DNA of 32,000 nucleotides from a virus. The DNA is taken from positions 1-32,000 of IMG/VR virus record IMGVR_UViG_3300035670_013237; one strand, written 5' to 3'. Of this stretch, positions 611 through 22,600 are shown in pieces; positions within the stretch are counted from its first letter, which is position 1; the number at the start of each line of letters is the position of its first letter. A program made the position numbers and the translations under genes. The notes below the pieces were generated by a model. It made no database searches. It was not told the DNA's origin and saw nothing but the letters and a program-made list of their open reading frames with translations.

Positions 611-685
611 CCAACCATAAAATGAGCGGATAATTCTTATGTGTGAATTGGGGTTGTCTGCTCCTATTTATTGCGGGAAGGTAAT

Positions 686-1870
686 ATGCCGAGCTTCGTA
701 CAGACACTACAGCCAACTCCGTTCGGTTTCTTCGACTCCGATCCGCAGTTCCAGCAGGAGGCGGACTCGATGGTCACCTTCGTCAAGCGCAAGTTGGGCG
801 ATGATGTGCTGTCGGTCGAGCTCACCCGCAAGGAGATCTGGGCATGCTTCGAAGAAGCATGCTGCGAGTACTCTCGCAAGATACACGAGCTGAAGATCCA
901 GTCCGAGCTCGCCAACGTCCTGGGCATGCCCACAGGCAGCACGAACGATCTCACGAATAAATACCCTTTCCAGACGCTCGAGTTCCTAATGCGTCAGGCG
1001 TCCCCATATTCAACTTACGCGGGGGTCGGTGGTAACTATGATGCGACGTTAGGATATTTCGACCTGCAGGCAGGCAAGCAGGATTACAACATCTACACTG
1101 ACCTGAAAGATGCTGTGTCTGGCTCAGTCATCTACCAGAGCATGACGACGAAGTCGCCCATTCGGGTCATCGAGGTCTTCCACGTTGAACCCCTTGCTGC
1201 ACAGCACTTTCTGCTCAACGCGAGCAACGTCACAAACTTCTTGGCCACGAACTTCAACTATGAATCGTACGTCAACTCGACCCTCTTCTACGTCCTCCCC
1301 ATCTTCGAGGACGTGCTCCGCCGTGGTATGTTGGAGTCCGCGTTCCGGGTGCGGCGCTCGAACTATTCATATGAGATTTTAGGCGGAAATGTTCGCATCT
1401 ATCCGGCGCCCGTCACGGACCTCCAGGTGGGTAAGTTGTTCGTCAAGGTGCAGGCAGGTATGCTTGATCCTCTCAACCCGACGGCGCTTCAGGGACAGGA
1501 CCAGTCGATCTACGGGGTCTCTGGTCCACAGAATGTGCCTCTCGGCAACATCCCATTCTCGAGTGTGACGCAGCCTGGGCGGCAGTGGATCCGTCAGTAC
1601 ACTCTCGCCCTGTCACGTGAATTACTTGGCTTGATCCGTTCAAAGTTTCAAAACATTCCAATTCCCAACGCTGACCTCCAGCTCAACGGTGAGAACCTGA
1701 TCTCGACGGCACGGGAGGACAAGGAGAAGCTCCAGACACAGCTGAAGGAGTTCCTTGACAATCTGACGAACGCGAAGCTGATGGAGCAGCAGGCCACGAT
1801 GGCCGAGTTCATGCAGAAACAGTTGAAGTACGTTCCGATGCCCCTCGGCCGAAGCGTCATCATAGGATAA
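686..1870 (+). CDS. neck protein, T4 gp13-like
   Basis: I prefer ATG 686 (GGAAGG 5 nt upstream) over the track's TTG at 671. The N-terminus KRKLGDDVLSVELTRKEIWACFEEACCEY matches the gp13 pattern ([28 protein letters not shown]). The C-terminus WIRQYTLALSRELLG...AREDKEKL...IIG parallels T4 gp13 WVKDYATALAKELNG...ARLEKEAL...LVG, recalled from memory. Confidence 0.75.
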   Translation: MPSFVQTLQPTPFGFFDSDPQFQQEADSMVTFVKRKLGDDVLSVELTRKEIWACFEEACCEYSRKIHELKIQSELANVLGMPTGSTNDLTNKYPFQTLEFLMRQASPYSTYAGVGGNYDATLGYFDLQAGKQDYNIYTDLKDAVSGSVIYQSMTTKSPIRVIEVFHVEPLAAQHFLLNASNVTNFLATNFNYESYVNSTLFYVLPIFEDVLRRGMLESAFRVRRSNYSYEILGGNVRIYPAPVTDLQVGKLFVKVQAGMLDPLNPTALQGQDQSIYGVSGPQNVPLGNIPFSSVTQPGRQWIRQYTLALSRELLGLIRSKFQNIPIPNADLQLNGENLISTAREDKEKLQTQLKEFLDNLTNAKLMEQQATMAEFMQKQLKYVPMPLGRSVIIG

Positions 1871-1882
1871 TAGGGGGACAAC

Positions 1883-2551
1883 ATGGCACGGCTCTTCATC
1901 ACACCCAGAGAACTCAACTTCATCAGTGATATCACGAAGGAGCTAATCAAGGACGTCGTCGGTCAAAAGATCTACTACTATCCGATCTCCGAGCACAAGA
2001 CACAGACACACGGGGTCTATAACGAGGCGCTCAAGAAAGTGTTCGACAACCCCATCGCGATTGATGCCCTCATCGACAATAACTTCCAGTCCGACACGAA
2101 GATCGATCAGTTCGGCGTCGATGCGCAGTACAAGATTGAGGTCTTCATCCAACACCGTGACCTCGTGGAGAAGGGCATAAATGTCGCCATTGGTGATTAC
2201 TTCTCATTTTCTGAGATTTTTTATGAGATCACCGAGAGGTCGTTCATGAGGAACATCTACGGCATGCCCGAGCACAAGGACGGTGTCAAGCTCGTGGGGG
2301 CCCGAGTTCGTGAGAGCCAATTCAAGGCTCTGGTCATCGGGCCTACCGACATCTCGCGGCCAGAGGCAGATGCCGTGCAGACGACCTTCGTGCAGCAGCG
2401 GGGTGCCGCCGTGAATAAAGAGGGTGACACAGCTGACGTCCGTGACCTTGTCAGGAATGGCGTCCTGGATGAGCCCCTGACTGGCCCCCGTGAAGTGTCG
2501 AGCCTGGGCGATGGTCCAGGCGTGGGTTCTGCATTCTACGACGAGGAGTGA
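1883..2551 (+). CDS. neck protein, gp14-like (assigned mainly by position)
   Basis: RBS AGGGGGA lies upstream of ATG 1883. The gene sits between the gp13-like and gp15-like genes, as gene 14 does in T4. Its own sequence pattern is only weakly recognised. Confidence 0.5.
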   Translation: MARLFITPRELNFISDITKELIKDVVGQKIYYYPISEHKTQTHGVYNEALKKVFDNPIAIDALIDNNFQSDTKIDQFGVDAQYKIEVFIQHRDLVEKGINVAIGDYFSFSEIFYEITERSFMRNIYGMPEHKDGVKLVGARVRESQFKALVIGPTDISRPEADAVQTTFVQQRGAAVNKEGDTADVRDLVRNGVLDEPLTGPREVSSLGDGPGVGSAFYDEE

Positions 2552-2554
2552 GAC

Positions 2555-3853
2555 ATGGCCAATAGATTCAACGCAAAAGGCAAGATTAGACAAGGCCAAC
2601 CGCCGCTCCCGACAGGATATCCCACTGACACCACGTCTGATCTAGTCATACCCCCTGTGGGGCTCGAGGACGTCGACGTGGCACTCTTTAATCTCTTCGA
2701 TAAAGAACTGCCCCTCGCTGTCGGGGGACCTGCCGCTGTCGACCTGAAGAAAGTTCCTGTCGTCTTTGCGGGCGGTGAAAAGTGGGCGATGCTTAAGAAG
2801 AACCGGCCGCTGAGGGACAAGACGAACTCTCTGATCCTGCCCATCATCACGATCGGGCGCCCGAGTTTTACACAGGACCCGACGTCGGACATCACGGGGC
2901 GCGGAATTAACCAGCGCACAGGTGAGATCGTCATTAGGAGAAGGTTGGATCGCTCAGACCGTGGATATCAAAACCTGATCAATAAATTACTCCTGAAACA
3001 CCAAGGGAATCTGGCTGTCAATCCGGCGCTGGCTGATCCTGGGCAGCTGACGACCTTGAATGATGTGGGAGAGCTCGAGGTGGATCCCACCATAAAGAGG
3101 GGCGGATTGTTATTGGCTGACAGGCACAATAATGTCTTTGAGACTCTCGTCGTGCCGAGCCCACAATTCATCACTCTCAGTTATGAAGTGATAATCTGGA
3201 CCCAGTACACCCACCACATGAACCAGATCAATGAGACCCTCATGTCATCTTTTCTGCCGCAGACTCGGGGCTGGAAGCTGGACACTCCTAAGGGTTATTG
3301 GTTCATTGCCCACATGCAAGAGGGCGCTTTCACGGCAGAATCAAATTTCGATGACATGTCACAGGGCGAGCGCATCATCAAGCAGAAATTCAATATTGAA
3401 GTTCCTGCCTACATTCTAGCGTCGAGCGCCCCAGGTGTGCCTGTGCCCGTGAAACGTTATGTGAGCGTTCCTAATATTTCATTCGATGTCGGCATTCCAG
3501 ACGATCGTCAAAATAGTGCACCCCAAGCTGACATTGTCACTGGTCCATTCCTGGGTGCGGATGATCCAACACTGCCCCTAGACAAGAAGAGAAGTCCGCG
3601 CAGGGACGCGAGAGACCCTGGTTCTTCGCGGTACTTCACCTCAGGCGAAATTAATCCAGAGGACCCCGCCCTACTGGCGCAGCCCAGGGGCACGTCTCCT
3701 GAGCGCTATAGAAAAGTCATGACTCGCGGAGCTAACGGGGGGCTCATGACGAGCTATATTAGAATTGCTAATAAGAACCCACACACAGGTGAGACTGTCT
3801 TCGTTCCGAGCGCGGACCTGGGTGAGCTATCGATAGTGGCAATTGAAGAATGA
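2555..3853 (+). CDS. tail sheath stabiliser / tail completion protein, T4 gp15-like, with a long C-terminal extension
   Basis: RBS GAGGAG is present. FITLSYEVIIWTQYTHHMNQINETLMSSFLPQ parallels T4 gp15 IKMIYELSIFTRYEDDMFQIVEQILPYFQP. The gene lies directly after the gp13/14-like genes and before the sheath genes. Confidence 0.6.
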   Translation: MANRFNAKGKIRQGQPPLPTGYPTDTTSDLVIPPVGLEDVDVALFNLFDKELPLAVGGPAAVDLKKVPVVFAGGEKWAMLKKNRPLRDKTNSLILPIITIGRPSFTQDPTSDITGRGINQRTGEIVIRRRLDRSDRGYQNLINKLLLKHQGNLAVNPALADPGQLTTLNDVGELEVDPTIKRGGLLLADRHNNVFETLVVPSPQFITLSYEVIIWTQYTHHMNQINETLMSSFLPQTRGWKLDTPKGYWFIAHMQEGAFTAESNFDDMSQGERIIKQKFNIEVPAYILASSAPGVPVPVKRYVSVPNISFDVGIPDDRQNSAPQADIVTGPFLGADDPTLPLDKKRSPRRDARDPGSSRYFTSGEINPEDPALLAQPRGTSPERYRKVMTRGANGGLMTSYIRIANKNPHTGETVFVPSADLGELSIVAIEE

Positions 3854-3924
3854 TAGTAAAAAATAATTTTGGGCTCGCCACGAAATACTTATTCTAGCGG
3901 TTTTATACCATAAGGAGTGCAGCG

Positions 3925-6900
3925 ATGCCCGAGCAGACTTTCAGGTCTCCCAACTTTTACGAAAGAGAAATTGATCTTACAGCCCCGCGCCCCGAAGGCC
4001 CGAGCGGCACACCAGCTGGTGTGATTGGAACCGCCAACAAGGGACCGGCATTTATCCCGACGATCGTCGGCAATTTTGATGAATTTGTGTCCAAATTCGG
4101 CAACTTGGATCCGAAGTGCTTTGGACCCTATGCTGTCAGTGAATTCTTGAAGCACAAGAATTCACTGACATACCTTCGCACGCTCGGTGCAGGCGCCAAC
4201 CTGTCTGAGTCACAAATTCAAACGACAGTTGCCACTGGCCGAGTGACAGGTGCAGGTCTCTATCTCGATGGTGTGCCCGCGCCTGATGACGCCATCGGTC
4301 GCCACAACGGTGTCGTGCAGTTCTTGGTGGCAACCCATGATGCGACGACCGATGAGGCGTTCGGCATGCCGATGTTCACGGACAATGACTCGATCAACAA
4401 CCCGAATACAGCTCGCCTCGTCCGCGGCATCTTCATGACACCCGAGACCGCGCGCATCATGATCGCGGCTGATCCCACGACACCGAATGCCTTCGACGGC
4501 ACGGACGCTGACGAGACGAACATTTCTTCGCTCACTTTCAACGGCAAGTTCAAGTTGATCGTGTCGTCGACCCTCGGCAATTCTTTTGCCAACACCGATG
4601 GTAGCCCAGGTGTACGGATCTTCACTGCGTCGCTCAACCCGACAGACCCTGACTATTTTGTCAAGGTGATGAACACTGATCCTGACAGGTTCGTCCAAGA
4701 GCAGCACTTCGTCTATGCGGACTTTCCAGTCGACGCTGAGGTCGCGGTCGCCGCAGGCCCTGCTGCGATTCTTTCAGGCTCGAACAACACGTCGGCTGAC
4801 TCAGGTGACCCCGCTCTGGAGTTCCGCAAAGCATTCGGTGCATATGACACACGCTTCCGCGCGCCTGCCTCACCCTGGTTCATCTCGCAGCCCTTCGGCG
4901 TCACCGAGTACGATCTATTCAAGTTCGAGTCTCTCGATGACGGTGAGTATGCCAACAACCTCTACAAGATCGCCATCACGGACCTGAAAGCCTCGATGGA
5001 TGACTCTGATCGATTTGCGACTTTCACAGTTCAGATTCGCGACTGGAACGACACGGACAACAGCCCCCTTGTTCTTGAGTCATTCCCGAACTGCACACTC
5101 AATCCGAGGTCAGCTAACTATGTAGCGAGGCTAATCGGTGACTTGAAGTCCTCCTTCAACTTCGATGCGGCCATTCCAGAAGAGCGTCGCATCCTCACCG
5201 TGGGCAGCTATGATAATGTCTCCAAGCTCGTTCGGATTGTGGTGCATGAGAGCGTCGAGCGTGGGCTCGTCCCTGAGAACGCGATGCCCTTTGGCTTCCG
5301 CGGATTTGAATTGCCAAAGACGAATGACTTGTTGACTGATGGTGCCCCGGGCACGCCTCGCCTCACTGGTGAGATTACGACCGCAGCCCTTGAGGGCGCG
5401 ATCCTCCCGCCCATTCCATTCCGCTTCAAGATCACGAAGGGAGAAATTCTTGCAGGAGGCACCTGGGCGGGTGAACCAGGCAAGAATGAGCTCACATTCC
5501 CATCATACCACTGGGGTGTTAAGTTCGAGCGCAATACTGTGCCCCTCAACTCGAATGTCATCTCTGAGAAGAACCTGCTCCTCAACAACTACACGAAGTT
5601 CCTTGGAATTTCGAAGCTCGACACACTTGTGACAGGCTCCGGTGCAGACACACTCAACCACAATAAGTTCACACTCGCGAAGGTCGCCCTGTCGAACTTG
5701 ACAGCGCTGAATGTCAGCTCGGTCATCACAGGCTCAGCGGCCCAGCACATGCGCGAAGCCGCCTACATCCGGGATGCTGCGATCAACCCAACCGATTATA
5801 CCATCAACGACGGTGTCCTCGGCAATCGTTTGACCCTAGCATCTCTTCTCAGCAAGCTGACTCCGGCTGAGTTCAACAAATTCTCGTCGTATTCCAAGTT
5901 CGTCACATTCATGGGCGGCGGCTGGGATGGCCTCAACATCCTCGATCGCGATGCTCGGCGTATGAATGATAAATCGACATCTTTCGACATCGGCGGTGCC
6001 GCGGTCTCCTACGTCTCGCCTGGATTCTCGGTCTCGGCCGTCAACTTCGCAGGTGATGGACAGGACAACTCGACCGTCGCGGCGTACAAGGCTGCGGTTG
6101 ACATCATGACCGATCCACTCCTTGTCAACACGAACGTGCTGGCGATCCCAGGCATCCGTGAGCCCTTCATCACAGATTACACGATGAACAAGGTCCGCGA
6201 TTATGGTCTCGCCTATTTTGTAATGGATATCCCTGCGTACGACGACTCAGGCAACCGGCTCTTCGATGACTCGACAGCACGCCCAAACGTTGAACAGACC
6301 GCAACCTCCTTCGATGCACGCGGGATCGACAATAACTACGCAGGCACCTACTTTCCTGATGTCTTCATCGACGATGCGACCAATAGGCGCCGTGTCAAGG
6401 TCCCTGCCTCCATCGCAGCATATGGTGCCCTTGCGTTCAACGATCTCGTTGCGTACCCATGGTTCGCGCCTGCAGGCTTCAACCGTGCAGCCCTCGATTT
6501 CGTCAATAACGTCGGTGTGCGCCTCAGCGTCACTGACCGGGATAGGCTCTACGAGTCCAGGATCAATCCAATCGCAACTTTCCCCCGGTTGGGCTTCGTC
6601 ATCTATGGTCAGAAGACCCTGCAGGTCAACAAGTCAGCACTCGATCGTGTTAACGTTCGCCGACTGCTCCTTGAGGTGAAGAGGGTCATCATCAACATCG
6701 CGAACGGTCTCGTCTTCGAGCAGAACACACCTGTTGTTCGTAATCGCTTCGTGGCGGATGCAACACTGCAGCTGGGTCTTATTCAGGCTCAGGCAGGTGT
6801 CGAGGCCTTCCAGGTCGTCATGAATGAGACCAACAACACTGCCGAAGATGTCGAGCTTAATCGCTTGAACGGCCGCATCGTCGTCGTGCCGACGCGGGCG

Positions 6901-6957
6901 ATCGAGTACATTGCGATCGACTTCATCATCACGAACAGCGGTGTCGCCTTCGTCTGA
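3925..6957 (+). CDS. tail sheath protein, paralogue 1 (T4 gp18-like, 1010 aa)
   Basis: Strong RBS AAGGAG. The N-terminus reads GTPAGVIGTANKGPAFIPTIVGNFDEFVSKFG. The mid region reads SPWFISQ...LYKIAITD...VQIRDWNDTD...NYVARLIGD. The C-terminus reads AYPWFAPAGFNRAAL...YGQKTLQ...SALDRVNVRRLLLEVKR. All three are canonical contractile-sheath signatures. Confidence 0.9.
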   Translation: MPEQTFRSPNFYEREIDLTAPRPEGPSGTPAGVIGTANKGPAFIPTIVGNFDEFVSKFGNLDPKCFGPYAVSEFLKHKNSLTYLRTLGAGANLSESQIQTTVATGRVTGAGLYLDGVPAPDDAIGRHNGVVQFLVATHDATTDEAFGMPMFTDNDSINNPNTARLVRGIFMTPETARIMIAADPTTPNAFDGTDADETNISSLTFNGKFKLIVSSTLGNSFANTDGSPGVRIFTASLNPTDPDYFVKVMNTDPDRFVQEQHFVYADFPVDAEVAVAAGPAAILSGSNNTSADSGDPALEFRKAFGAYDTRFRAPASPWFISQPFGVTEYDLFKFESLDDGEYANNLYKIAITDLKASMDDSDRFATFTVQIRDWNDTDNSPLVLESFPNCTLNPRSANYVARLIGDLKSSFNFDAAIPEERRILTVGSYDNVSKLVRIVVHESVERGLVPENAMPFGFRGFELPKTNDLLTDGAPGTPRLTGEITTAALEGAILPPIPFRFKITKGEILAGGTWAGEPGKNELTFPSYHWGVKFERNTVPLNSNVISEKNLLLNNYTKFLGISKLDTLVTGSGADTLNHNKFTLAKVALSNLTALNVSSVITGSAAQHMREAAYIRDAAINPTDYTINDGVLGNRLTLASLLSKLTPAEFNKFSSYSKFVTFMGGGWDGLNILDRDARRMNDKSTSFDIGGAAVSYVSPGFSVSAVNFAGDGQDNSTVAAYKAAVDIMTDPLLVNTNVLAIPGIREPFITDYTMNKVRDYGLAYFVMDIPAYDDSGNRLFDDSTARPNVEQTATSFDARGIDNNYAGTYFPDVFIDDATNRRRVKVPASIAAYGALAFNDLVAYPWFAPAGFNRAALDFVNNVGVRLSVTDRDRLYESRINPIATFPRLGFVIYGQKTLQVNKSALDRVNVRRLLLEVKRVIINIANGLVFEQNTPVVRNRFVADATLQLGLIQAQAGVEAFQVVMNETNNTAEDVELNRLNGRIVVVPTRAIEYIAIDFIITNSGVAFV

Positions 6958-6978
6958 TCAGGCCGGCTGAAGTAGGAG

Positions 6979-7008
6979 CGCGGCGGCAATCCCGCCGCGT
7001 TCTTGCTT
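6979..7008 (+). terminator. intrinsic terminator-like hairpin after sheath paralogue 1
   Basis: CGCGGCGG (6979-6986), loop CAATC, CCGCCGCG (6992-6999), then TTCTTGCTT. It begins 22 nt after the stop codon. Confidence 0.55.
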
Positions 7009-7149
7009 AAGAGAGACAATTTCGCGGTCCCACGCTTCAAATGTGACGAGGAGAAATAGTTACTTGGAGATGTGGGAACGCTTTATAACAAAACCAGTTC
7101 ACGTATTTGCGGAGAAGAAAATAGTTAGTGCTAGACAGGGAGCAGAATA

Positions 7150-10100
7150 ATGGCACAGGTAAATCAAGGAAGCGCTGGAGTAACAGCAACAGAGATCGAC
7201 TTTTCAGGTCCTCTAACACAGACACCCACAGGCGTGCCTGCGGGGGTCATCGGCACGGCGCTGAAGGGTCCTGCATTCGTTCCGGTCACGGTTGGGACGA
7301 TTTCGGACTTTTATGCTAAGTTTGGCACCACCGATGGGAAAAAGTTCGGACCCCTTGCTGTCGCTGAGTGGATGCGCAATGCAAACGCAGTGACATATTT
7401 GAGAGTGTTAGGCGCGGGCGAGGGCGGCGCTCGCGATGTCGATGGATCTGTCGCTCGAGCAGGTTTTGCCGTCGGTGCGGAGCTGCCCGACAGTGATGGT
7501 GTCATTACCAGCAATTCATTCGCGAATGCGGGCGGGCCTGATGGGCGCACATATTTCCTCGGCGCCTTCATGTCCGAATCACTCGGCTCGTCGGTCTTCT
7601 CGTCCGCAGGGCTCCAGGGCGTTGGGGGCGTAACACCAAATCCCCAATCAGCTGTTCCCATCATCCGCGGTGTCGTCATGGCACCCTCAGGCGTCATCCT
7701 GCGCCTATCGGCATCATTCGACACCACGAACACGAGCGATGCGCCCGCCTCCAGCTATGTCGCTGACGATGCGACGGCACAAGGCAATATCGTCGGTGAC
7801 GTGCGGCTCGAGGAGGGCGGCCTCGCGAAGCAAGAGTTCGTCATGATCCTCAACGGTCACATCGGCGCGGACGTGAACTACTCCAATGTCATCACTGCCT
7901 CATTCGACCCGACGGCCGGCAATTACTTCGCCAATATCTTCAACAAGGATCCGTATAAGATCCAAGACGCTGGGCACTTCCTGTATGCGAACTGGGATAT
8001 CCATCCCTCGACAGCAGCTGTCACAGGCACTGTCCTCGTTGGTTCCGCATATGGTGCGGATCTCCAAAATGGTCTTGAGCCCTCGGCATTCTTGACGACC
8101 AGCTCGCTGACATACAACTCAGGCTCCACAGAGGTGCCTAATTACGAAGGGTTTGAGGACAGGTTTGGGCATGCCAGGTCACCGTGGGTCATCTCACAGC
8201 GCTTTGGTGGCTCTCCTGCCAATCTCTTCAAGCTCCATGCCATCGACGCCGGTGCAGGAGTCTCTAACCTCTACAAGATCTCAATTGAGAACATCACACC
8301 CAGCCCCGATGCTACCAACAAGTTTGGATCCTTCGACATCATTGTGCGCGACTGGCGGGACCGTGACGGCGCGCTGCAGCCGCTTGAAAAGTTCCGCGGC
8401 GTCAACCTCGATCCGCGCAGCGACCGGTACATTGCGAAGGTCATCGGTGACGCACATGTCTTCTTTGACTTCGACCGTGACATTGGAGCCCAGGCAGTCG
8501 TCGTCGAGGGCAACTACCCGGCCCGCTCCAACTACATTCGTGTGGAGGTTGACTCCGGCGTCGAGACTGGGACCGTCGATCCAACGGCACTGCCACTGGG
8601 CTTCCGGGGCATTGCACACCTCGTCACCTCAGGCAGCATGCCCCTGGCGAGCAACGATTGCGATAGCACACTGTCTTCAGCAGACCTCGTCAAGCGTGCG
8701 GTCACACCTCCGCTCCCAATGCGCTCCAACATCACGAGGGGCTCAGGCGGCCGGGTCCAGGCGAGCCCATCATTCTTCTGGGGCACGCAGTTCGAGCACG
8801 TCGTCACCTTGACTGACACGAACTCCTCGACCCTCAAGAATGACTCGCTGAATTCTTTTGTCAAGTACTTCCCGGACTATTCGACGCAGTACGCCAATTT
8901 CGTCGCAGGCGACAACACCGGTGCGGTCGACACGGCTGCCCTCGGCATCATCGATGCTGACAGATTCTGTAACAACCTCTTCACACTGGAGAACGTGCAG
9001 GTCGTGACGGGCTCGAACACCCTCGCCGACGTCAACAAGTGGGCGAACGCGACCTACGTCCGCCGCGGCAACATCGTCGCCGACGCCGCAGCCAAGACTC
9101 GAGCCCTCAAGGTCGACGATCTTACCTTGCGCGTAAATCGCCGGCTTGCGAAGTTCACATTCCCGCTCCAGGGCGGCTTCGACGGTGTCAACCTGTTCAA
9201 CCGTGAAACTGCAGAGCTCACCAACAACGCGGTCACGGCCGACATGGACAACACTGCGCGGGGCCTCCAGGACGGTGCGACTGTGAAGGCGTACACGAAG
9301 GCTCTGGAGATCATGAAGAACACGGTGAACACCGATATCCAGCTCCTCGCCATCCCGGGCATCAGGCATGAATCAGTCACTGACCGTGCGGCTGATGCCG
9401 TCAGGGATCGCTTCGACGCCCTGTATATCATGGATGTGAGACAGTACGACGACAACGTCACCGAGGTAACGTCATCTGCCCAGACTCCTTCGGTCACGTA
9501 CACGGCACAGGAGTTCAGCAGCCGGACCCTCGATAATAGCTTCGCGGCCGCGTACTTCCCAGACGTGGTGTTGCAGGATCCCACGACCAGAGAGAGTCTC
9601 GTCGTGCCCCCCTCGGTTGCCGTCCTGGGTGCCCTCGCCCTCAATGATCGTGTTGGGTATCCATGGTTTGCCCCTGCTGGCACGACCCGTGGTGCTCTGC
9701 CGACCGTCACCCGTGCGAATGTCCCACTCTCGAAGCTGAACATGGACACCCTGTACGACGTCAACATCAACCCCCTCGTCGCGCTGCAGCCTGACAGCGG
9801 CGTGGTCGTGTGGGGCCAGAAGACCTTGCAGGCTGCTGCGTCTGCCCTCGACCGTGTCAACGTCCGCCGCCTCCTCATCGAGATCAGGCGCCAGGTCCGT
9901 GACATCGCACAGACGATCCTCTTCGAGCCCAACCGCGCCGCGACCCTCGCCCGCTTCACTGCGGCGGTCACGCCGAGGCTCCAGAGGATCCAGGCCCTGG
10001 CGGGCCTCGATCGGTTCAAGGTCATCATCGATTCGTCGACGACGACCCAAGCCGACGTCGAGAACAACACGGTCCGGGGCAAGATCTTCGTCCAGCCCAC

Positions 10101-10158
10101 CCGGTCCATCGAGTTCGTTTCGCTCGACTTCGTGGTGACCAACAACATCGCCGAGTAA
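7150..10158 (+). CDS. tail sheath protein, paralogue 2 (T4 gp18-like, 1002 aa)
   Basis: RBS AGGGAG. It carries the same three signature blocks as paralogue 1: GVPAGVIGTALKGPAFVPVTVGTISDFYAKFG; SPWVISQ...LYKISIEN...IIVRDWRDRD...RYIAKVIGD; and GYPWFAPAGTTRGAL...WGQKTLQ...SALDRVNVRRLLIEIRR. Confidence 0.9.
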   Translation: MAQVNQGSAGVTATEIDFSGPLTQTPTGVPAGVIGTALKGPAFVPVTVGTISDFYAKFGTTDGKKFGPLAVAEWMRNANAVTYLRVLGAGEGGARDVDGSVARAGFAVGAELPDSDGVITSNSFANAGGPDGRTYFLGAFMSESLGSSVFSSAGLQGVGGVTPNPQSAVPIIRGVVMAPSGVILRLSASFDTTNTSDAPASSYVADDATAQGNIVGDVRLEEGGLAKQEFVMILNGHIGADVNYSNVITASFDPTAGNYFANIFNKDPYKIQDAGHFLYANWDIHPSTAAVTGTVLVGSAYGADLQNGLEPSAFLTTSSLTYNSGSTEVPNYEGFEDRFGHARSPWVISQRFGGSPANLFKLHAIDAGAGVSNLYKISIENITPSPDATNKFGSFDIIVRDWRDRDGALQPLEKFRGVNLDPRSDRYIAKVIGDAHVFFDFDRDIGAQAVVVEGNYPARSNYIRVEVDSGVETGTVDPTALPLGFRGIAHLVTSGSMPLASNDCDSTLSSADLVKRAVTPPLPMRSNITRGSGGRVQASPSFFWGTQFEHVVTLTDTNSSTLKNDSLNSFVKYFPDYSTQYANFVAGDNTGAVDTAALGIIDADRFCNNLFTLENVQVVTGSNTLADVNKWANATYVRRGNIVADAAAKTRALKVDDLTLRVNRRLAKFTFPLQGGFDGVNLFNRETAELTNNAVTADMDNTARGLQDGATVKAYTKALEIMKNTVNTDIQLLAIPGIRHESVTDRAADAVRDRFDALYIMDVRQYDDNVTEVTSSAQTPSVTYTAQEFSSRTLDNSFAAAYFPDVVLQDPTTRESLVVPPSVAVLGALALNDRVGYPWFAPAGTTRGALPTVTRANVPLSKLNMDTLYDVNINPLVALQPDSGVVVWGQKTLQAAASALDRVNVRRLLIEIRRQVRDIAQTILFEPNRAATLARFTAAVTPRLQRIQALAGLDRFKVIIDSSTTTQADVENNTVRGKIFVQPTRSIEFVSLDFVVTNNIAE

Positions 10159-10251: not shown

Positions 10252-10342
10252 AGAAATATTCCTAGAGCGCCCGGATGCCCAACGTTAATAACCACATTTT
10301 CAAGTTTGAAGATATTTAGAGACAGGTGACAGGAGATAACAA

Positions 10343-10837
10343 ATGCCAGCAGAGACACTTGACGTAGCCAGCATGCTTCCCAATAAGTTCGAGCCCAAGC
10401 GCAAAACGCGGTGGGTTGTCATGATCGAGGGCATCGACGCGTACATCGCGAAGACGGTCCAGCGTCCCACGATTAATACCGAAGAAGTTGAAATTCCATT
10501 CATCAACAGCCGCCGTTACATCGCAGGCAAGACCAACTTTAACACAATCAGCGTCACGCTCCACGACCCCATCGCCCCCTCGGGCGCCCAGCAGGTGATG
10601 GAATGGGTCCGGACGTGCTATGAGTCGGTGTCAGGCCGCGCAGGCTACGCCGACTTCTACAAGCGTGACATTCAGTTGAAGTTGCTCGATCCCGTCGGCA
10701 CGGTCGTCGAGCTCTGGGATATCAAGGGCGCGTTTGCCACTGAGGTGAATTTTGGCGAGCTCACTTATGAAGGAAACGCGGACCCCGTCGAAATTTCACT
10801 CACACTGAGATTCGACAATGCGGTGCTCCAGTTCTAA
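10343..10837 (+). CDS. tail tube protein, T4 gp19-like
   Basis: RBS AGGAG. At 164 aa it matches the gp19 size. EVEIPFINSRRYIAGKTNFNTISVTL and IKGAFATEVNFGELTYEGNADPVEISLTLRFD parallel T4 gp19 KIPVGFMNRKINVAGDRTFDDWTVTV and IKGLWPTNVGELQLDWDSNNEIQTFEVTLALD. It lies directly downstream of the sheath genes. Confidence 0.8.
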   Translation: MPAETLDVASMLPNKFEPKRKTRWVVMIEGIDAYIAKTVQRPTINTEEVEIPFINSRRYIAGKTNFNTISVTLHDPIAPSGAQQVMEWVRTCYESVSGRAGYADFYKRDIQLKLLDPVGTVVELWDIKGAFATEVNFGELTYEGNADPVEISLTLRFDNAVLQF

Positions 10838-10856
10838 TCTGGAACTGTGCTTCCCC

Positions 10857-10886
10857 AAGGGCCCCTTCATGGGGCCCTTGTTTTTA
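10857..10886 (+). terminator. rho-independent terminator after the tube gene
   Basis: AAGGGCCCC (10857-10865), loop TTCAT, GGGGCCCTT (10871-10879), then GTTTTT. Confidence 0.75.
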
Positions 10887-10947: not shown

Positions 10948-12600
10948 ATGAGTTATAGCAGAATCGCTTGTCCAATGTGTGATAAGAGCTTTGGGCAAGA
11001 AGCAAGATTCCTGTCACATCTTGCAGGTGAGCATGGGGTGCATGATAGCCTCCAGTTGTACCTAGACACGCACTGCTCTGGGCGACATCCGACATGCAGC
11101 TGCAATCCTGAGTGCCTCGAACGATTAAAGTGGTTGGGCTGGAAGCAAGGATTCACCTCAAAATACGCTCGGGGGCACAACGCGAGGGTGGACTCAATAT
11201 TCTTCAGTGATACACTTCAAAAAGAAATGGCACGAAAGAGGAGAGAAGCCTGCAGCAGTCCGTGGAATGCAGGCCTTACGAAGGAGACATCTGAAAAAGT
11301 TTTGGAGATGAGCAGAAAGATCTCCAGCTCTCTTCTTGAGGGCCACAGTACTGGAAAGATCCAGGATTGGCGCGAGCGGGACCCAACGAGAGCTGTGCAT
11401 GCCGCAGAGAAGATATCGGCAACGAAGAAGAAAAAATTCGCTCTGGGCGCCCTTGTGCCATGGAACAAAGGCTTGTCGAAGGAAACATCTCCCAGCATTG
11501 TGCATGCGGCCCGCAGAATTTCTGAGAGATATGGTTCACCTGGAGCAGGTCGCCGCCTGAAGCCCACTGAGCTGAGGGAGAGGATTGACAGGTTTTCTGA
11601 TAAGTTCCAGCTCGTTTCTTCACTCGAAGACTACAAAACGAGGCGGGTCGATAGGTTGGAATTCTTGTGCAAGAGCTGCGGTGCCCAACAAATGAAGAGT
11701 CTCGCGATGCTGGAGGAGTCGCCTGTTTGCTTCGTGTGCTCGCCCAAGGAGTCTCGCGGGCAGCTAGAACTCTTTGAGCTCGTCAAGGCACTTGCACCTG
11801 ATGCCGTCCTCTCCGACAGAAGTGCCATTTCTCCTAAAGAGCTGGATGTCTGGATTCCCTCAAGACGGTTGGGCATAGAGTATAATGGCCTATACTGGCA
11901 CTCTGCAGCCAACCTGAGTGATCCAGAATATCACGTGAAAAAGATGCATGCCTGCTATGGGGCGAATATCAGCCTTTTTTCAATATATGAAGACGAATGG
12001 CGGAGCAAGAGGCACATCGTCGAGGGCATGATTCGACACAGGCTTGGCCTCCCTGCGAAGAAGCTAGATGCTAGAAAATTGGAGGTCGTGGAGCTGGGCC
12101 CGTCTGTTGCGAGGACCTTCTTTGATGAGAATCACCTCGAGGGCCATGTCGTAGGGATGAAATACTTCGCGTTGCTGGACCCCGCATCTTCAGAGATCAT
12201 GGCTGCGGTCTCCTTGAGAAAGCCCTTTCACAAGAAGTACGAAGGTGCGCTCGAGCTCGGACGGTGCTGCACCCGCGTTAATTACTCAATCAGGGGATGG
12301 CTGGGTAAGCTGACACGTGCAGCCAGGGATTACGCCAAGAGTGTGGGAGCCAACAAGTTAATAACGTATGTTGATCTTAGAGTTGGGATAGGATCAGGAT
12401 ACCAGGCCGCGGGCTGGACTCTCGTGTCAGCTGGAAGTGAACCGCGCTTCTGGTGGACAGACTACACGACGAGGTATAATCGGTTCAAGTTCCGCGCAGA
12501 TTCTAAGAATGGCCTGTCACAAGCCCAAGTTGCGGCCGCAGCAGGCGTTTCACAGATTTTTGGACTTCCAAACTCTTTGTATGCGCTAATCCTCGACTAG
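10948..12600 (+). CDS. free-standing homing-endonuclease-like multidomain protein (C2H2 finger, NUMOD3-like repeats, Vsr/PD-(D/E)XK-like core, unknown C-terminal domain)
   Basis: It contains CPMCDKSFGQEARFLSHLAGEH, a classical C-X2-C-X12-H-X4-H finger. Two repeats, PWNAGLTKETSEKV and PWNKGLSKETSPSI, fit the NUMOD3 DNA-binding pattern. CKSCG...CFVC is a zinc-ribbon-like motif. ELDVWIPSRRLGIEYNGLYWHS fits a Vsr-like nuclease core pattern. GC is lower than in the flanks (42-53% on sample lines) and AGA/AGG Arg codons are frequent. The gene is inserted between conserved tail genes. Confidence 0.7.
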   Translation: MSYSRIACPMCDKSFGQEARFLSHLAGEHGVHDSLQLYLDTHCSGRHPTCSCNPECLERLKWLGWKQGFTSKYARGHNARVDSIFFSDTLQKEMARKRREACSSPWNAGLTKETSEKVLEMSRKISSSLLEGHSTGKIQDWRERDPTRAVHAAEKISATKKKKFALGALVPWNKGLSKETSPSIVHAARRISERYGSPGAGRRLKPTELRERIDRFSDKFQLVSSLEDYKTRRVDRLEFLCKSCGAQQMKSLAMLEESPVCFVCSPKESRGQLELFELVKALAPDAVLSDRSAISPKELDVWIPSRRLGIEYNGLYWHSAANLSDPEYHVKKMHACYGANISLFSIYEDEWRSKRHIVEGMIRHRLGLPAKKLDARKLEVVELGPSVARTFFDENHLEGHVVGMKYFALLDPASSEIMAAVSLRKPFHKKYEGALELGRCCTRVNYSIRGWLGKLTRAARDYAKSVGANKLITYVDLRVGIGSGYQAAGWTLVSAGSEPRFWWTDYTTRYNRFKFRADSKNGLSQAQVAAAAGVSQIFGLPNSLYALILD

Positions 12601-13069: not shown

Positions 13070-13939
13070 ATGGCAGAAGAACGCGAGACACGTAATGAAA
13101 TTTTTAGAGGCAACCATCAGGGCATCGACCCAAGAATCCAGCAGGTGTCGTCCGCCGATCGGGCTCGAATGGACTTCGGCCTCGACATTCCGGTCGAGAC
13201 GATGCCCCTGCCCTCGAATGGTCTGGTCTATCCCGTCGACAGCACACTCCACGGCCGTGAGACTGTGGACATCAAGGCAATGACGGCCCGTGAGGAGGAC
13301 ATTCTCACTTCAAAGGCGTACCTAAAGAAGGGCACGGTCATCACAGAGCTCATCAAGTCGTGCCTCCTCGACAAGAGCATCGATCCTCGTGACCTCCTGA
13401 CGGGCGACAGAAACGCTCTCATGGTGGCAATCAGGATCACTGGGTACGGATCAGACTACGACGCCGAGATCGAGTGCAACGAGTGCTCGACGAAGGCACA
13501 GCACAAGTTCGACCTTGCGGGGTTGCCCCTGAAGCGCCTCCAGATCGCGCCCGTCGCACAGGGCCAGAACATCTTTGAGTTCCTCCTGCCGTACAGCAAG
13601 AAGATCGTCAAGTTCCGCTTCCTGACTGGGCGCGATGAGGAGGAGATCGTCGCCACTGCCGAGAAGCAGAAGAAGCTGGGCCTGTCGGCCGAGGCGAGCG
13701 TCACTACGTCACTGCTGTACTCCATCGTGTCGATCGACGGTGTCGAGGACCGTGCCAAGATTGCGTCATTCGTGAAGATGATGCCGGCCCGAGACTCTCT
13801 GGCACTCCGGAATTACATCAAGGACAATGAGCCAGGCATCCTGATGAGGCAGGAAACGTCGTGTCCTTCATGCGGACACAGCGAGGAGGTGAACATGCCG
13901 CTCGGAGTCACGTTTCTTTGGCCTTCGGCCGGAAGATAA
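13070..13939 (+). CDS. baseplate hub protein, T4 gp26-like (T4_baseplate family pattern)
   Basis: RBS AAGGAAG. LPSNGLVYP...VDIKAMTAREEDILTS...ITELIKSCLLD...IDPRDLLTGDRNALMVAIRITGYGSDYDAEIECNECS fits the gp26/gp51-type hub pattern as I remember it. A second CxxC (CPSCG) lies near the C-terminus. The gene is upstream of the tape measure. Confidence 0.6.
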   Translation: MAEERETRNEIFRGNHQGIDPRIQQVSSADRARMDFGLDIPVETMPLPSNGLVYPVDSTLHGRETVDIKAMTAREEDILTSKAYLKKGTVITELIKSCLLDKSIDPRDLLTGDRNALMVAIRITGYGSDYDAEIECNECSTKAQHKFDLAGLPLKRLQIAPVAQGQNIFEFLLPYSKKIVKFRFLTGRDEEEIVATAEKQKKLGLSAEASVTTSLLYSIVSIDGVEDRAKIASFVKMMPARDSLALRNYIKDNEPGILMRQETSCPSCGHSEEVNMPLGVTFLWPSAGR

Positions 13940-14568: not shown

Positions 14569-17500
14569 GTGGCAACCCCATCCCAAGACCAGCTCGACGC
14601 GGCCAAAGCACTTCTGCCCCTCATGGAGAAGATGGCCGACGCCGCGGACGAAGCGAGCCAGGCCCTAGGTGAACAGCTCGACGCCATGCGTGAGATGGTG
14701 AAGATCTCGAAGCAGCTGTCTGACTCTCCGGGCATGGGTGCAGGCATCAGCGAGACCTCTGAGAGTGTCAGGGAGCTGATCGACGACCTGGAGGACCTGA
14801 ACAGCGAGTCTGCCACATCTTCTTCGAAGCTGGAAGAGATCGGCGAGTCAGCCGGCAAGGCGGAAAAGAAGCTGGGCCTCTTCGGCAAGGCAGCTTTGTA
14901 CGCGACATCTTTCGGGCGCGGGTTCTGGCAGGGCCTGAAGATGACAGGCTCAATCCTGCGGTCAGTCACAGGCCTCATCGGCGGTGCCATTGGCTCGATT
15001 TATAGATTAGGCAAGTCGATTTTGGCGATTCCCTTCAAGCTCTTCAACATTCTGGGCAACATGGCCTCCCAGGGCGGCTCCAATGAGCTCGCTGAACAGA
15101 TTGAGAAGCTCAGAGATCACTTTGGAGCCCTGGGCCAGACTGCGCCTCAAGCCGTCCTCTCCACCGCCAAAGAGATGAGGGGCTTCGCGGCGACAGGCCT
15201 CAGTGCATATCGGATCTTCGGCAACATGGCGGAGCGCCTCCAGCACCTCAACGAGCTGTCGCAGAAGATGGGCCCAGTCTTCCAGAGTTTCACGGAAGAA
15301 TTTAAGAAGAGCGGCGGCGCCCTCCTGGGTTACCAGAAGGGCTTGGGGCTCACTGACGAGGCCATGAGAACTTTCGGCGAGCGCGCCAAGACGATGGGCG
15401 GCACCCTCGAGGGTGAGCTCAATAGTGTGTACAAGCAGGTGGATGCGCTCGGTGCACAGTTCAACATCGCCACGAAGGACATCTCGCGCGACCTGCAGAA
15501 GGCCGCCGCGGACGTGAAGCACTTCGGCGGGGCGACGATCAAGCAGATGGCGACAGCATCGGTCTACGCCAGAAAGCTGGGCCTCGAGCTCGACAAGATC
15601 GTGGGCACATTGGACACATTCGAGACATTCGAGGGTGCTGCTGAGAACGTGTCGAAGCTGTCGCAGTCGTTCGGCATCCAGGCAGATGCGTTCAAGCTGA
15701 TGGAGATGCAGGACCCAGCGCAGCAGGTCGACTACCTGCGCAAGCAATTCGCCGCAGCAGGCGTCGACGCCTCCAAGTTCAACCGCCAGCAGCTCAAGCT
15801 GCTGTCTTCGACGACAGGCCTCGACGAGGCGACGGCCCGGCAGGCTTTCTCACTCAAAAACCAGGGCGTCAGCCTCGACAAGATCTCGTCGGCGAGCGCC
15901 AAGGCCGAGAAGAAGCAGGTGTCGCAGGCCGAGGCGATGAATAACCTCGCGGACGCCATGAAGCGCATGATCAAGTCGGGCAGCGCCGAAGAGGGCTCAT
16001 TCCTCGACAGGTTCTTCAGGGGCATCGCCCGGGGCGTCATGGCAGGCAAAGAATTCCGCCAGGTGATGATGAATCTCCGGATTGCGTTCAGGACCGTCCT
16101 CCTCGAGGGTGTCAGGTTGGGCCGTGCCATCGCGCAGATGCCTGCCGTCAAAGAATTCTTCGGAGGGATCGCCGAGTTCTTCAACCCTGCCAGGTTCAAG
16201 GCCCTCGTCGGCGGCGTCACCGGTGAGCTCATCAAGTTCGTGAAGGGTGAGCAGTCATTCCCTGTCATGATGGAGAACATCAAGAAGAGGTTCTTCGACC
16301 ACTTCGATGCGTCCTCAGGTGCAGGACAGAAGTTCCTGTCGGGGGTCAAGAGGCTGTTCCAGGGCGCGATGACCCTCGCGGCGGACGCGATCAGGTGGAT
16401 CGCCGAGAAGATGGCGATTGGTGTCAAGATCCTCATCGGACTCCTGCAGGGCAAGGGCCTCGACTTGTCGGGCCTCGCAGGCGGCGGTTTCTGGGGCGAG
16501 GCCCTGGCACCTCTCTTCGCTGCCTTCAAGGATGCCTGGAAGACCCTGTCCCCCGTCGTGGGTGAGCTCCTGTCCCTCATCGGTGATAAGCTGATGAACT
16601 GGCTGGACATGACGGTGCTCCCATTTCTCGAGGAGAAGGCGCCTATCCTTGCTGCTGCCCTCTTGGGCCCAGCCTTCATCAAGGCAGGTCTCGCTGTCCT
16701 CGCCGAGCAAGTGGGCCCTGGGATCCTGAAGGGCTTCCGGAGGCTCCTGCCCACATGGCTCGGGGGGCTCCCAAAAGTCATTCCTCCCGTTCCGCCCATT
16801 CCACCCATTCCGACTGGACCACCATTGCCCCCTGCGCCAGATTCAGTCGCGGCGGTTGCGGCCGCCAAAGCGTTGGGGCTAAAGCTCGTTGCCATCGCAG
16901 GAGCCCTCGCGGTTGGCGGTGTTGCACTGGCTATTGCCATCTGGGCGATGAAAGGAATTTTAGGTGATATGACCCTTGAGCAGGCAGAGCTGCCTCTCTA
17001 TATTATTGGTGCTGTGGCACTTGCATCTTTGCCCCTGATGGGCGCTCTTGCACTGGGGAGCGCAATACCCCCGAGCCAAATTTTTCTAGGCGGTCTAGCT
17101 ATCGCAGCAGCACTGGGCATCGGAGGCTTAATTGGTGCGGGGGTGATCGCACTGATGGGAACAATATCTAAAGAACACGCTGACAAGGCAGTCTCAGCGA
17201 TGTGGGCCGCCACCCAAATACTCTTGATGGCTGTGCCTGTGGGTCTCGCAGCAGCCGCGATGGGCGCGATGGTGCCCTTCCTGCTGCTCGGTCTGATAGG
17301 TTTTCCCGTGATGTCTGAAGTCCTTGAAGAGATGTCTGATGCGATCATCAATATCATGACAGCCCTCGATAAGGTAAAGATGGGCGCAGACATCGGGGCC
17401 AAGGTCGACGCCTTCGTCAAGATCCTCACCGCAGTGACAGAGTTCACCAATGTCATGGTCGAGGTGATGGAAGCCACCGCACCCTCGCTCGACAGCCTGC

Positions 17501-19604: not shown

Positions 19605-22600
19605 ATGGTCGACAGAATTGTTCCCCCACAGAATCAAGGTGTGCAGCCCGAAGCGCGGCCCGATGAGACACGAGAGCTGACGGTCACTCCTGAGGGCGGA
19701 GGCGCCCGGTTGTGGACTGGCATGCCAGGCTTTGAAATCGACGGTCTAGGCTACACGTATGACGTGGGAGACCCAGATCGGGGAGACATTCCAGGGTATC
19801 CATTTGCTCTTGATTCTGGCATGGTCAATGTCGAGCAAAATGATCCTCCCCGCAAGGACCTGAGCCGGACGACGAAGGACACGCTGGCGAAGTATTTGGG
19901 CCAGAAGACTGCACAGAACTATTTCCCAGTCGATGGAGGTACAGGATGGACCTCAACCAGCATTACCTCTGAGACACCTGGGCTGACACCGCCTATCCCT
20001 AGCCCTAATGAACCAACCAAAAATTCCAATTGGTTCACAAAGGGAACGTATAGCACAGATGGAACATCTAATGTCTCAGAGCCTCTTAGAGGATGGAAGC
20101 CCCGCCAAAAATTCGAACCCCCAGAGACTAGTATAGGGTCAAGATCAGATCAACTAGATCTAAAGAAGGGAAAAGATCCCGCGGGCGATCCCGATTTAGA
20201 TGGAAATGATCTCCTCTCAAAGAATGAGAGCCTCGAGAAAATTGAGCGTTATTCTAATGCTGTTTTAAAAAATAATCGCTTTACTCGTGAAAACAAATAT
20301 GTCGATTTTGATGTGTCAGATTCATCCAGCAACGTTAGAAGTGAGCCCGTCGTTTATCATCCCGAATATGGGCCATTCACAATTGATAAATTGGCACAAA
20401 TAGCACCAACACTTCTCCTCCGTGCGTCAGATTCTGAAATAGAAAAACTCCCAGGACAAGAGAGATTTCCAGGGGAAGAAAAACTTGTGCTAAAAAAGAT
20501 CGAGCTTGTTAAACTCGAAGCAAGGGATGCAATTGAGTCCCTATCTGATGCTGAGGCTTCTTCAGCTGATTTTTTTAGTATTGCAGATGGATCTTGGGGT
20601 ACATTCACAAATTTTGAAACCCAATTTGATGGATCATCTTTGAGTGCCATGGAAGCATTGGCTATAGTGCTTACAAAGGGCATTTTCAAAATAATGGACA
20701 GTCTTCTTGACTTGGTCATTACAACAAATAAAAGTTTTAACCCAAATGAAGAGCCTGACCGTTTAGGTCTCCAGCTTGGCAAATCATTTGCAACTGCACA
20801 AATAAGTGGTGACCCAAGCACATTAGAATTTTGGGATATTTTGTATTACCTGACAGGGCTTTTTGGAATAGTCCCAACTAGAAATTCTTACACGCTTTGT
20901 GTATTTCAAGGGCTGAAGGCTCTTTTTGAGAGCAATAATACAGATTCTAATCTTTTTGGAATTGAGCTTCCATCAATTCTATCTGCCACAGCAGGTGAGC
21001 GAGGATTTTCACAGGCTACACCTGGCTACATTTCAACTCTTGCTCGGGCGATTCTTCGGGCTAATCTTATTTTCTATGACACATTTGCAAAAATTCCAAA
21101 AAATGATATGATCATGGGCACAATCAGCGTGATTTCAAATTCTAAGATTTTAAAAATCTTGAATGCGATCGCTGCTATTGGAGATGGAATAATCTCGAGC
21201 TATGATTATAAAGCCAAGTTGAGCAGCCTAAGTGAAACAAGCAGCATGTTCGATGCAACACCTCGGCAATTCAAGTCAAATGGTCGCTCAATTCCATATG
21301 CTGCAGGAGCGGCACCCTCTTATTATTTATTGCCATCATCAATTTTGCAACTCAAAATTGACAACCCTAATCTGGGAGGTGATTTACCAATTTCTTCTAT
21401 GACTGATAGAATTAAGATATTGGAATCTGGTGCAAGAATGTTCAAAACGAACAGATCAGATCCTGAGCAAGTCTCTAAAATAGAAAATATTCTTGAAGCT
21501 GCCTATGTTCCATTCTATTTCCATGATCTGCGCACGAATGAGATCATTTCATTCCACGCATTTTTAGATTCCATCACTGACGGATTCTCAGCTGAATATG
21601 AGTCTGTGTCAGGCTTCGGTCGCATTGACCCTGTCCAGATCTATAAGGGCACGCAGCGCAGGATGGGCCTGTCATTTTACGTCGCTGCCCTCGATGATGC
21701 TGACTTCGATGAAATGTGGACCAAGATCAATAAGCTCGTCACCCTCGTCTACCCGCAGTACACGGAGGGGCGTGTATTGGCTAAGGGCGGCTATAATTTT
21801 GTGCAACCCTTCAGTCAAATGGTCGGAGCCTCACCCCTGATCAGGCTGAGGCTGGGCAATCTGTTCCGCAGCAATTATTCCAAGTTTGCACTTGCACGCG
21901 TCTTTGGCGCTGGGCTGTCAGGCAAAAGTTTCCAAGACACGTCGCCTGCAGCACCAAGTCAGGCTTCGCCTGCGCCAGCTCAAGCTCCCCCGCCCGCAGC
22001 AAATTCTAGCCCTGCTACAGATAGTGAGAGTATTCAAGATCCCCTTGAGCAAGAGATTTTTGAACTTGCTGTAGAACGTAAGACAGCATTTACTTTTAAA
22101 AATCTAGATGTGCTAAAACAAAAACTTTATCCTTTGCTCACGAATGGCTTGAGCGCATTCAGCGGCCTGACTGAAGATGATGTTCAGAGATTACAATTTT
22201 CTATTATAAATCATAATAAAGATGCTTCATCTGCCGAAATCATGTGGCAGAGTTGGAATTATGGGCTTGACACCATATCCATTTTCAATTTCAAAGAGCG
22301 TCTAACAAATGAATATGGATCTGCAGGCAGTTATCCTATTTTTTTTGAAAAAATTAGTGATTTCAAGATTGTTGACAGAGAACCTTTAGTGCGTCAAATA
22401 TTAGCTAATAGGCAAAAAACTGCGCCAGGAGTTGGTACTCCTGTGCCAGCTACATCATCAGCCCCTGTGGGTGCTGTTTCGCCATCGTCAGGAAGTTTAG
22501 AATCTACTAATGTGAATCAAAATGCAGACCCTGAGAACCTCTCATCCATTGAAAAATTTATGCAATCTAGTCAAAACTCTGTCGTGAAGTCTTTTGAATC

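Follow-up and report, generated by a model that had tools for sequence, protein, structure and literature searches.

Phage contractile tail sheaths are treated as homopolymers of one protein. In the literature that we searched, described phage exceptions were found in the PaBG group alone. The tail sheath of PaBG has two components, proteins of 58.5 and 57.9 kDa that were both identified as virion bands, and duplicated sheath genes are known in the PaBG group, Lu11 included (PMC7412058, citing Kurochkina et al. 2018, Virology 515:46). Duplication has given some phage genomes two copies of the sheath gene (PMC9230969), and no atomic structure of a two-component phage sheath was found in the literature searched. 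Here we describe a tandem pair of sheath genes, A and B, at 3925-10158 of a 32,000-nucleotide stretch of viral DNA (positions 1-32,000 of IMGVR_UViG_3300035670_013237; this whole stretch is called the window below). It is clear that A and B are real, ancient, intact, full-length sheath paralogues of the T4 gp18 type, and we regard it as about an even call whether both would act as working lattice subunits of one two-component contractile sheath.

PaBG resembles the phage of the window in being a jumbo myovirus with two near-equal, full-length sheath paralogues, about 35-38% identical, that go back to a gene duplication. The two systems differ in the size of the subunits (528 and 541 amino acids (aa) in PaBG, about 1000 aa in the window) and in the placing of their genes, gp076 and gp093 of PaBG being 15 kb apart whereas A and B are in tandem. 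In addition, PaBG gp076 adjoins two tube paralogues, gp074 and gp075, whereas the window has one tube gene, and some relatives in the A/B clade, unlike PaBG, carry three sheath paralogues. The PaBG tube paralogues are found at 662-1165 and 1226-1732 (minus strand) of locus L175 (NC_022096 45000-90000).

The solved sheath closest to A and B by sequence, and top or near-top by fold, is that of T4 (gp18; 3J2M, 9MKB). T4 shares with the window the N-terminal arm and the C-terminal domain of the sheath protein and the neighbourhood of gp13, gp14, gp15, sheath and tube genes. Unlike the window, T4 has a single sheath gene, of 659 aa, and terminase genes between gp15 and gp18. Enlarged insertion domains make A and B about 350 aa longer than gp18.

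Afp2/3/4 and Pvc2/3/4 (6RAO, 6J0N) are, like A and B, adjacent sheath paralogues in one module, and theirs form one contractile sheath. Matches of the Afp and Pvc sheaths to the C-terminal domain of A and B were weak, though significant, in both sequence and fold. However, Afp and PVC are capsid-less, phage-tail-like particles whose paralogues differ in length and domains and occupy specific layers, whereas A and B are of the same size and belong to a phage genome that also has genes for the neck, the baseplate and replication. An extracellular contractile injection system as the source of the locus was ruled out by this context (gp13-like and gp15-like neck genes; gp32-like, UvsX/RecA-like and DNA polymerase genes; gene-bearing contigs of up to 271 kb).

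TssB and TssC (VipA/VipB) of the type VI secretion system are two different chains that jointly form one protomer and are not paralogues; an earlier reading of the window, made from its letters alone (the sequence-only reading), had wrongly listed them as such. Their sheath is like the one proposed here in that it is contractile and made from two gene products. A split protomer of the TssB/TssC kind was ruled out for A and B, which are homologous and full-length and each hold the whole sheath fold. The direct precedent among phages, the two-component sheath of PaBG (PMC7412058), had been missed by the sequence-only reading.

Two full-length sheath genes in tandem

The sheath genes of the window and their ribosome-binding sites are as follows.

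3925-6957, plus strand: sheath paralogue A, ATG start, 1010 aa, T4 gp18-type
7150-10158, plus strand: sheath paralogue B, ATG start, 1002 aa, T4 gp18-type
3912-3917, plus strand: Shine-Dalgarno sequence of A, AAGGAG, read from the sequence
7137-7142, plus strand: Shine-Dalgarno sequence of B, AGGGAG, read from the sequence

BLASTP joined A and B in a single collinear alignment (A 15-1004, B 15-998) with 34% identity and an E value of 4e-164, a similarity that exceeds chance by far. The sequence-only reading had described two collinear open reading frames of 1010 and 1002 aa, each with its own ribosome-binding site, and this description was confirmed. The signatures that it had quoted (PAGVIGTA.KGPAF, SPW.ISQ, YPWFAPAG and GQKTLQ...SALDRVNVRRLL) were all found, and its view of the two genes as well-diverged, intact sheath paralogues is borne out. 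When the window was searched by tblastn with several sheath proteins, only A and B matched, and no third sheath copy or fragment was found in it.

Both members of the pair matched PHROG 23 'tail sheath' (E 7e-51 and 1.5e-52). With Pfam Phage_sheath_1C, B scored 29.0 bits, above the cut-off, and A fell below the cut-off. T4 gp18 was the best solved relative by sequence in a phmmer search of the PDB (E 5e-26 for A and 1e-25 for B). The PDB sequence matches to A and B fell on the C-terminal domain of gp18, and hhalign of the A/B profile placed A 817-1010 onto gp18 459-652 with a probability of 99.5%. The codon bias of the two genes was alike (effective number of codons, Nc, 45.5 for A and 46.6 for B) and typical of structural genes; being the same in both, it is uninformative on their relative abundance.

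Retention of both copies and selection in relatives

The relatives comprised 80 loci with A orthologues from an IMG/VR scan (57-66% identity), the source contigs and one NCBI contig. Of the 73 loci in which the sequence runs on for at least 1 kb past A, 72 showed B immediately after A. In the 73rd locus, L053, B was intact and carried an inserted domain of about 215 aa, so the pair was kept in 73 of 73 loci. The spacer between A and B measured 44-62 nucleotides (nt) in nearly all relatives and 192 nt in the window. In three loci an insertion of approximately 0.8-1.2 kb lay between the two genes, and the two insertions that were inspected, in L040 and L059, carried endonuclease-like reading frames. 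Since insertions are tolerated between A and B, the pair is independent of translational coupling.

Selection was measured as the ratio of nonsynonymous to synonymous substitution rates (dN/dS), using custom Nei-Gojobori code and pairs with dS below 1.5. The ratio was 0.044 for A and 0.053 for B (38 matched pairs), and purifying selection on the two genes was equally strong. Because retention is universal and dN/dS low, neither A nor B is decaying or dispensable, and a decaying copy was ruled out on these grounds; relatives, in which the sequence-only reading had wished to see whether a second copy is present, thus keep both.

These data bear directly on the possibility that A and B are redundant or alternative sheaths, interchangeable or condition-specific, one of which could be dispensed with. 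Recombinant sheath proteins of other phages self-assemble alone into polysheaths (PMC6357053), and a homomeric sheath is therefore conceivable. Redundant copies would, however, be lost or decay in some lineages, whereas both were kept in every one of the 73 loci, among A orthologues that are only 57-66% identical, with dN/dS near 0.05 for each copy. No inversion or switching element was found between A and B either, and we consider redundancy very unlikely.

A third paralogue, C, was present after B in 14 of the 30 loci with room for it and was 45-49% identical to B; an example is L006 16291-19416, and the 13 further loci include L017, L021 and L047. No C gene is found in the window. With a dN/dS of 0.17, C is evolving three to four times faster than A and B.

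Predicted fold and conserved parts of the two proteins

The AlphaFold2 model of A had a predicted local distance difference test score (pLDDT) of 87.2 and a predicted template modelling score (pTM) of 0.84; the values for B were 82.2 and 0.82. When the models were compared with the PDB using Foldseek, the Klebsiella KP1 and T4 sheaths ranked top for A and T4 gp18 ranked top for B (E 7.9e-19), and the matches also included the phiKZ, P1 and phi-Kp24 sheaths. The match to T4 gp18 had E values of 1e-16 to 1e-19 and extended over about 1030 alignment columns, and the whole-chain alignments to solved sheaths gave a template modelling score per target of about 0.5. Against predicted viral structures, the named top matches were nearly all tail sheaths.

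In both models residues 1-22 form a free, unstructured arm of low confidence, as would be expected of a strand that becomes ordered solely in the polymer. The N-termini of A and B are in register with gp18 residues 1-55, the GPAF motif included, significantly for A and marginally for B. A 4-98 aligned to gp18 1-95 with a score of 54, compared with 26 +/- 4 for shuffled sequences, and none of 300 shuffles was as good; the N-terminus of B gave a weaker score of 38, which 8 of 300 shuffles equalled. The gp18-like N-terminal arm and C-terminal domain, that is, the strand-exchange elements to which the earlier reading had pointed, are found in both A and B.

The paralogues were also compared by aligning 58 sequences of A with 39 of B. 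The identity between A and B peaked at residues 19-48 (77%) and 824-853 (67%), and its minima, of 9-27% and accompanied by indels, were at residues 107-232, 587-654 and 685-707. The A family was internally about as conserved as the B family. The arm and the C-terminal core were the most conserved parts of both copies (0.85-0.94 per column), and 143 columns were at least 95% conserved with an identical residue across the two families. At 24 sites, three of them within the first 18 residues of the arm, different residues were fixed in A and in B.

Segment lengths between conserved anchors were also compared with those of other sheaths, including the single-copy sheath of Microcystis phage Mel-JY01, the best cultured relative (58-72% coverage of A and B, 33-35% identity), and the sheaths of LR756508.1, an uncultured phage with a genome of 484 kb. 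The 30-88 segment has 58 residues in A, B, Mel-JY01 and T4, as in most compared sheaths, and the 913-1000 segment has 87 residues in nearly all of them, PaBG included. The 88-236 segment, on the other hand, has 148-171 residues in A, B and C as against 81-89 in the Mel-JY01-like and LR756508 sheaths, and the 582-666 segment 63-84 as against 33-50.

The differences between A and B thus sit mostly in the insertion domains, where the earlier reading had looked for them, and these domains probably face outward. Their orientation is drawn from the published domain layout of T4 gp18, because hhalign placed just the C-terminal 194 residues of A and B on gp18.

Some B orthologues are considerably longer than B of the window. 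In the alignment, those of L080 (12166-15717) and L053 (4452-5921) have 150-215 aa extra after about residue 128-165 of B, and an extra domain is indicated by the length of the reading frame in L074 (3035-6631). The insertion loop falls within the segment of greatest divergence between A and B. A orthologues vary far less in length than B orthologues.

One of the paralogues could also lie outside the contractile lattice and form a collar, or else a layer or decoration on the outside of the sheath. Jumbo-phage tails do carry extras, such as the hairs on Y3 and CBB and the coil round the sheath of phage G (PMC13282480, PMC5259590), and the tolerance of B orthologues for 150-215-aa insertions in an outer loop would agree with such a role. 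The strong conservation of the arm and the C-terminal core in both copies (0.85-0.94 per column) would, however, be unexpected outside a handshake lattice, and we think this role improbable.

Origin of the pair

In Mel-JY01-like loci a single sheath gene was found in 80 of 80 cases, and A and B are equidistant from the single-copy sheath of Mel-JY01 (214 and 211 bits, respectively). We built a neighbour-joining tree of the sheath proteins with 200 bootstraps; the tree is crude, and the PaBG branches in it are long and unstable. A was monophyletic in 92.5% of the bootstraps and B with C in 91.5%, and A, B and C grouped together in just 60%. C was nested inside B, adjoining the B copies of the C-bearing genomes. 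A and B grouped with each other and not with PaBG gp076 or gp093, which fell outside the A/B/C group; the PaBG proteins are without the middle domains. Judged from these sequence comparisons, the duplication of A and B is independent of that in PaBG, and the likeness of the two pairs would be convergent. That A, B and C share segments enlarged relative to the Mel-JY01-like and LR756508 sheaths supports a duplication within the lineage.

LR756508.1 has a further pair of sheath genes, both full-length and on one strand, that are 29% identical and separated by about 1 kb.

L001 (LR756508.1, 195000-225000), 7464-9938 and 10953-13427, same strand: sheath pair, 824 aa each; the pair is also present on the related IMG/VR contig L089

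In contrast to A and B, the divergence of this pair is asymmetric, the downstream copy being 42% and the upstream copy 28% identical to the Mel-JY01 sheath. In the tree the two copies grouped neither together nor with A and B, and they are probably the product of a separate duplication.

The likeliest history of the A/B clade is that a sheath gene of about 1000 aa was duplicated once at its base, after which A and B diverged at similar rates and B was duplicated again in a subclade.

Promoter-like elements and the spacer between A and B

The following elements were found around the sheath genes.

3885-3891, plus strand: promoter-like ATACTTA, 40 nt upstream of the A start
7056-7062, plus strand: extra ATAGTTA in the spacer, 94 nt before B
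7121-7127, plus strand: promoter-like ATAGTTA, 29 nt upstream of the B start
10312-10318, plus strand: promoter-like ATATTTA, 31 nt upstream of the tube gene
6970-7008, plus strand: 17-bp hairpin in the spacer between A and B, with a U-rich run inside the stem

The motif ATA[CGT]TTA has just four plus-strand occurrences in the window, all of them shortly upstream of A, B or the tube gene. Among distinct relatives, 57 of 59 have it upstream of A, at a distance of 37-51 nt, and 51 of 51 have it upstream of B, at 22-44 nt; all seven distinct upstream regions of C hold it at 24-31 nt. Its background frequency is 0.33 per kb. The T4 late promoter is TATAAATA, and by analogy with it ATA[CGT]TTA can be read as late-promoter-like. 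The motif may be the late promoter of the clade, and each sheath paralogue is probably its own late transcription unit. Another candidate for the promoter, TTTATAMC, was given up in favour of ATA[CGT]TTA, whose conservation extends across relatives.

We also looked at the hairpin after A as a terminator that would lower the expression of B. It was rejected in this role: it is specific to this genome, the U-run is within the stem, and the spacer of relatives is 44-62 nt long. The spacer 6958-7149 folds at -67.8 kcal/mol (z -4.28), with the 17-bp hairpin and a second stem-loop, and it may be the remnant of an insertion.

Composition of the sheath

A two-component sheath is favoured because both copies keep the complete lattice core, because size, constraint and divergence are symmetric and retention is strict, and because the tube and gp15-like partners are single-copy; PaBG, whose two sheath proteins were both identified as virion bands, provides a precedent (PMC7412058). 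We infer from this that A and B co-assemble in one sheath and are roughly comparable in abundance. The proposed course of events begins with the tandem duplication of a gp18-type sheath gene of about 1000 aa early in the clade. Both copies would have retained the parts that knit the sheath together and keep it attached to the tube, that is, the N-terminal arm with its GPAF linker and the C-terminal domain, while the large and presumably outward-facing insertion domains diverged. Each copy would be transcribed late, probably from its own promoter-like element, and A and B would then polymerise together on the single tube protein. The resulting two-component lattice, which might consist of alternating discs, mixed hexamers or blocks, would display two distinct outer domains on the surface of the tail.

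Several points weigh against this proposal. Adjacency in an operon and shared promoters do not fix stoichiometry; the sheath paralogues of Afp and PVC are likewise adjacent, yet their copy numbers are very unequal. The promoter-like motif also precedes the faster-evolving C and some other genes, so it cannot settle copy number and points to late transcription rather than to a high copy number. Purifying selection of this strength, moreover, would be expected just as much of a ring protein that is minor but essential.

Such a protein is the subject of the explanation that we consider possible, though the less probable one, namely that one paralogue forms the bulk of the sheath and the other supplies a specialised disc, or a few of them, at the baseplate or the neck. 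As in the case of Pvc3/Pvc4 and Afp3/Afp4, the discs would be end-specific, located at the junction of the lattice with the sheath initiator or with the gp15-like terminator. Sheaths with end-specific layers of paralogues have been solved, and Afp2/3/4 and Pvc2/3/4 are among the PDB matches of A and B; the tandem arrangement in one module is common to Afp and PVC, and the third paralogue of the subclade also has its counterpart there. The 24 sites fixed differently in A and B, with three in the first 18 residues of the arm, would fit position-specific contacts. However, A and B are equal in size and collinear, whereas Afp3/4 and Pvc3/4 differ in length from the main sheath (354 vs 451, 417 aa), and with symmetric divergence and equal constraint A and B do not look like a main protein plus a derived one. 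The identification of both PaBG sheath proteins as gel bands of the virion (PMC7412058) also speaks against a minor ring component. Stoichiometry cannot be read from sequence, which for this reason does not decide between a heteromeric sheath and a ring; the evidence leans to two bulk subunits.

A more specific form of the two-component sheath, which we put forward only tentatively, is an obligate heteropolymer with a fixed order. The arms, being paralogue-specific, would make A and B alternate at set positions, and C would join them in the subclade. If this were true, heteromeric sheaths would have arisen at least three times independently in giant phages (the PaBG group, LR756508 and the A/B clade), and a general advantage would be suggested, for example that long tails could be tuned in their stability or their contraction wave, or could display two kinds of surface domain.

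Neighbouring genes and the source genome

The other features of the window are listed below.

671-1870, plus strand: gp13-like neck protein (head-tail adaptor); PHROG 211 'head-tail adaptor Ad2', E 1.3e-9
1883-2551, plus strand: 222-aa protein in the T4 gp14 position, placed by gene order alone
2555-3853, plus strand: gp15-like tail sheath stabiliser / tail terminator, single copy; Pfam T4-gp15_tss, E 5.4e-5, below the curated cut-off
10343-10837, plus strand: gp19-like tail tube protein, sole tube gene in the window; Pfam Phage_T4_gp19, 30.2 bits (above the cut-off); PHROG 4542 'tail tube', E 3e-28
10856-10880, plus strand: intrinsic-terminator-like hairpin and T-run (10-bp stem with 8 GC pairs, then TTTTTAATGT), which ends the sheath-tube block
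10948-12600, plus strand: HNH homing endonuclease between the tube and baseplate-hub genes; phrog_3339, E 4e-55
13070-13939, plus strand: baseplate hub / tube-initiator-like protein (T4 gp48/54 family); Pfam T4_baseplate, E 3e-16; PHROG 150 'baseplate hub', E 8e-20

The gene order, with the gp13-like gene, the 222-aa reading frame, the gp15-like gene, A, B and the tube gene, is that of a T4-like tail module. Pfam Phage_T4_gp13 is annotated for the 671-1870 gene on the source contig, and the T4-gp15_tss family is annotated also for the gp15-like orthologue in L006. The 222-aa frame gave no family match in Pfam, PHROG and NCBIfam scans; its neighbours on either side are the gp13-like and gp15-like genes, which matches the position of gene 14 in T4. 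Further downstream the window has gp32-like, UvsX/RecA-like and family-A DNA polymerase genes. Protein A is present on a 271-kb contig, and the contigs of relatives reach 357 kb. The source is an uncultured jumbo phage, a myovirus whose tail module is T4-like. In a Megablast search the region matched none of 50,697 phage records, and no record among these genomes covers at least 80% of A or B. Rfam and tRNA scans of the window were empty.

In some relatives, too, the sheath-tube block holds free-standing genes like those of homing endonucleases, either in the A-B spacer or after C and ahead of the tube gene (L006 19413-21071, minus strand; L040 11239-12352; L059 10907-11671).

Three large reading frames of the window, of 1577, 1066 and 994 aa, had no matches in Pfam, PHROG and NCBIfam. 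The 1577-aa frame (14569-19302, plus strand) occupies the position of the tape measure gene in Bacillus phage SP-15 and Flavobacterium phage immuto, and its match to the corresponding Mel-JY01 protein was marginal (E 0.004). If it is the tape measure, an assignment made by position alone, the tail would be unusually long. The 1066-aa frame (19605-22805, plus strand) sits in the baseplate/fibre block and has a GC content of 0.448 and a third-position GC content of 0.40, compared with about 0.55 and 0.73 in its neighbours. Its codon usage is uncorrelated with that of the sheath genes (r 0.04), and it was probably acquired recently and encodes a tail fibre or receptor-binding protein. In addition, a 402-aa frame (26181-27389, plus strand) encodes a partial family-A DNA polymerase that matches positions 112-355 of the 381 in the Pfam DNA_pol_A profile, which suggests a split or truncated polymerase gene.

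Significance

Duplicated phage sheaths were already known from the PaBG group, to which the A/B clade adds an independent case. What is new here is the independent origin, the T4-like module, the tandem genes, the subunits of about 1000 aa, the clade-wide survey and the three-paralogue subclade. A practical limit is that the clade is without a cultured member. The arrangement is strictly conserved and widespread in metagenomes, and its subunits, two or three in number, are each about 1000 aa long. With a second independent case, heteromeric sheaths would be a recurring solution and not an oddity, and the clade would offer a natural system for studying how a homomeric helical machine becomes heteromeric after gene duplication.

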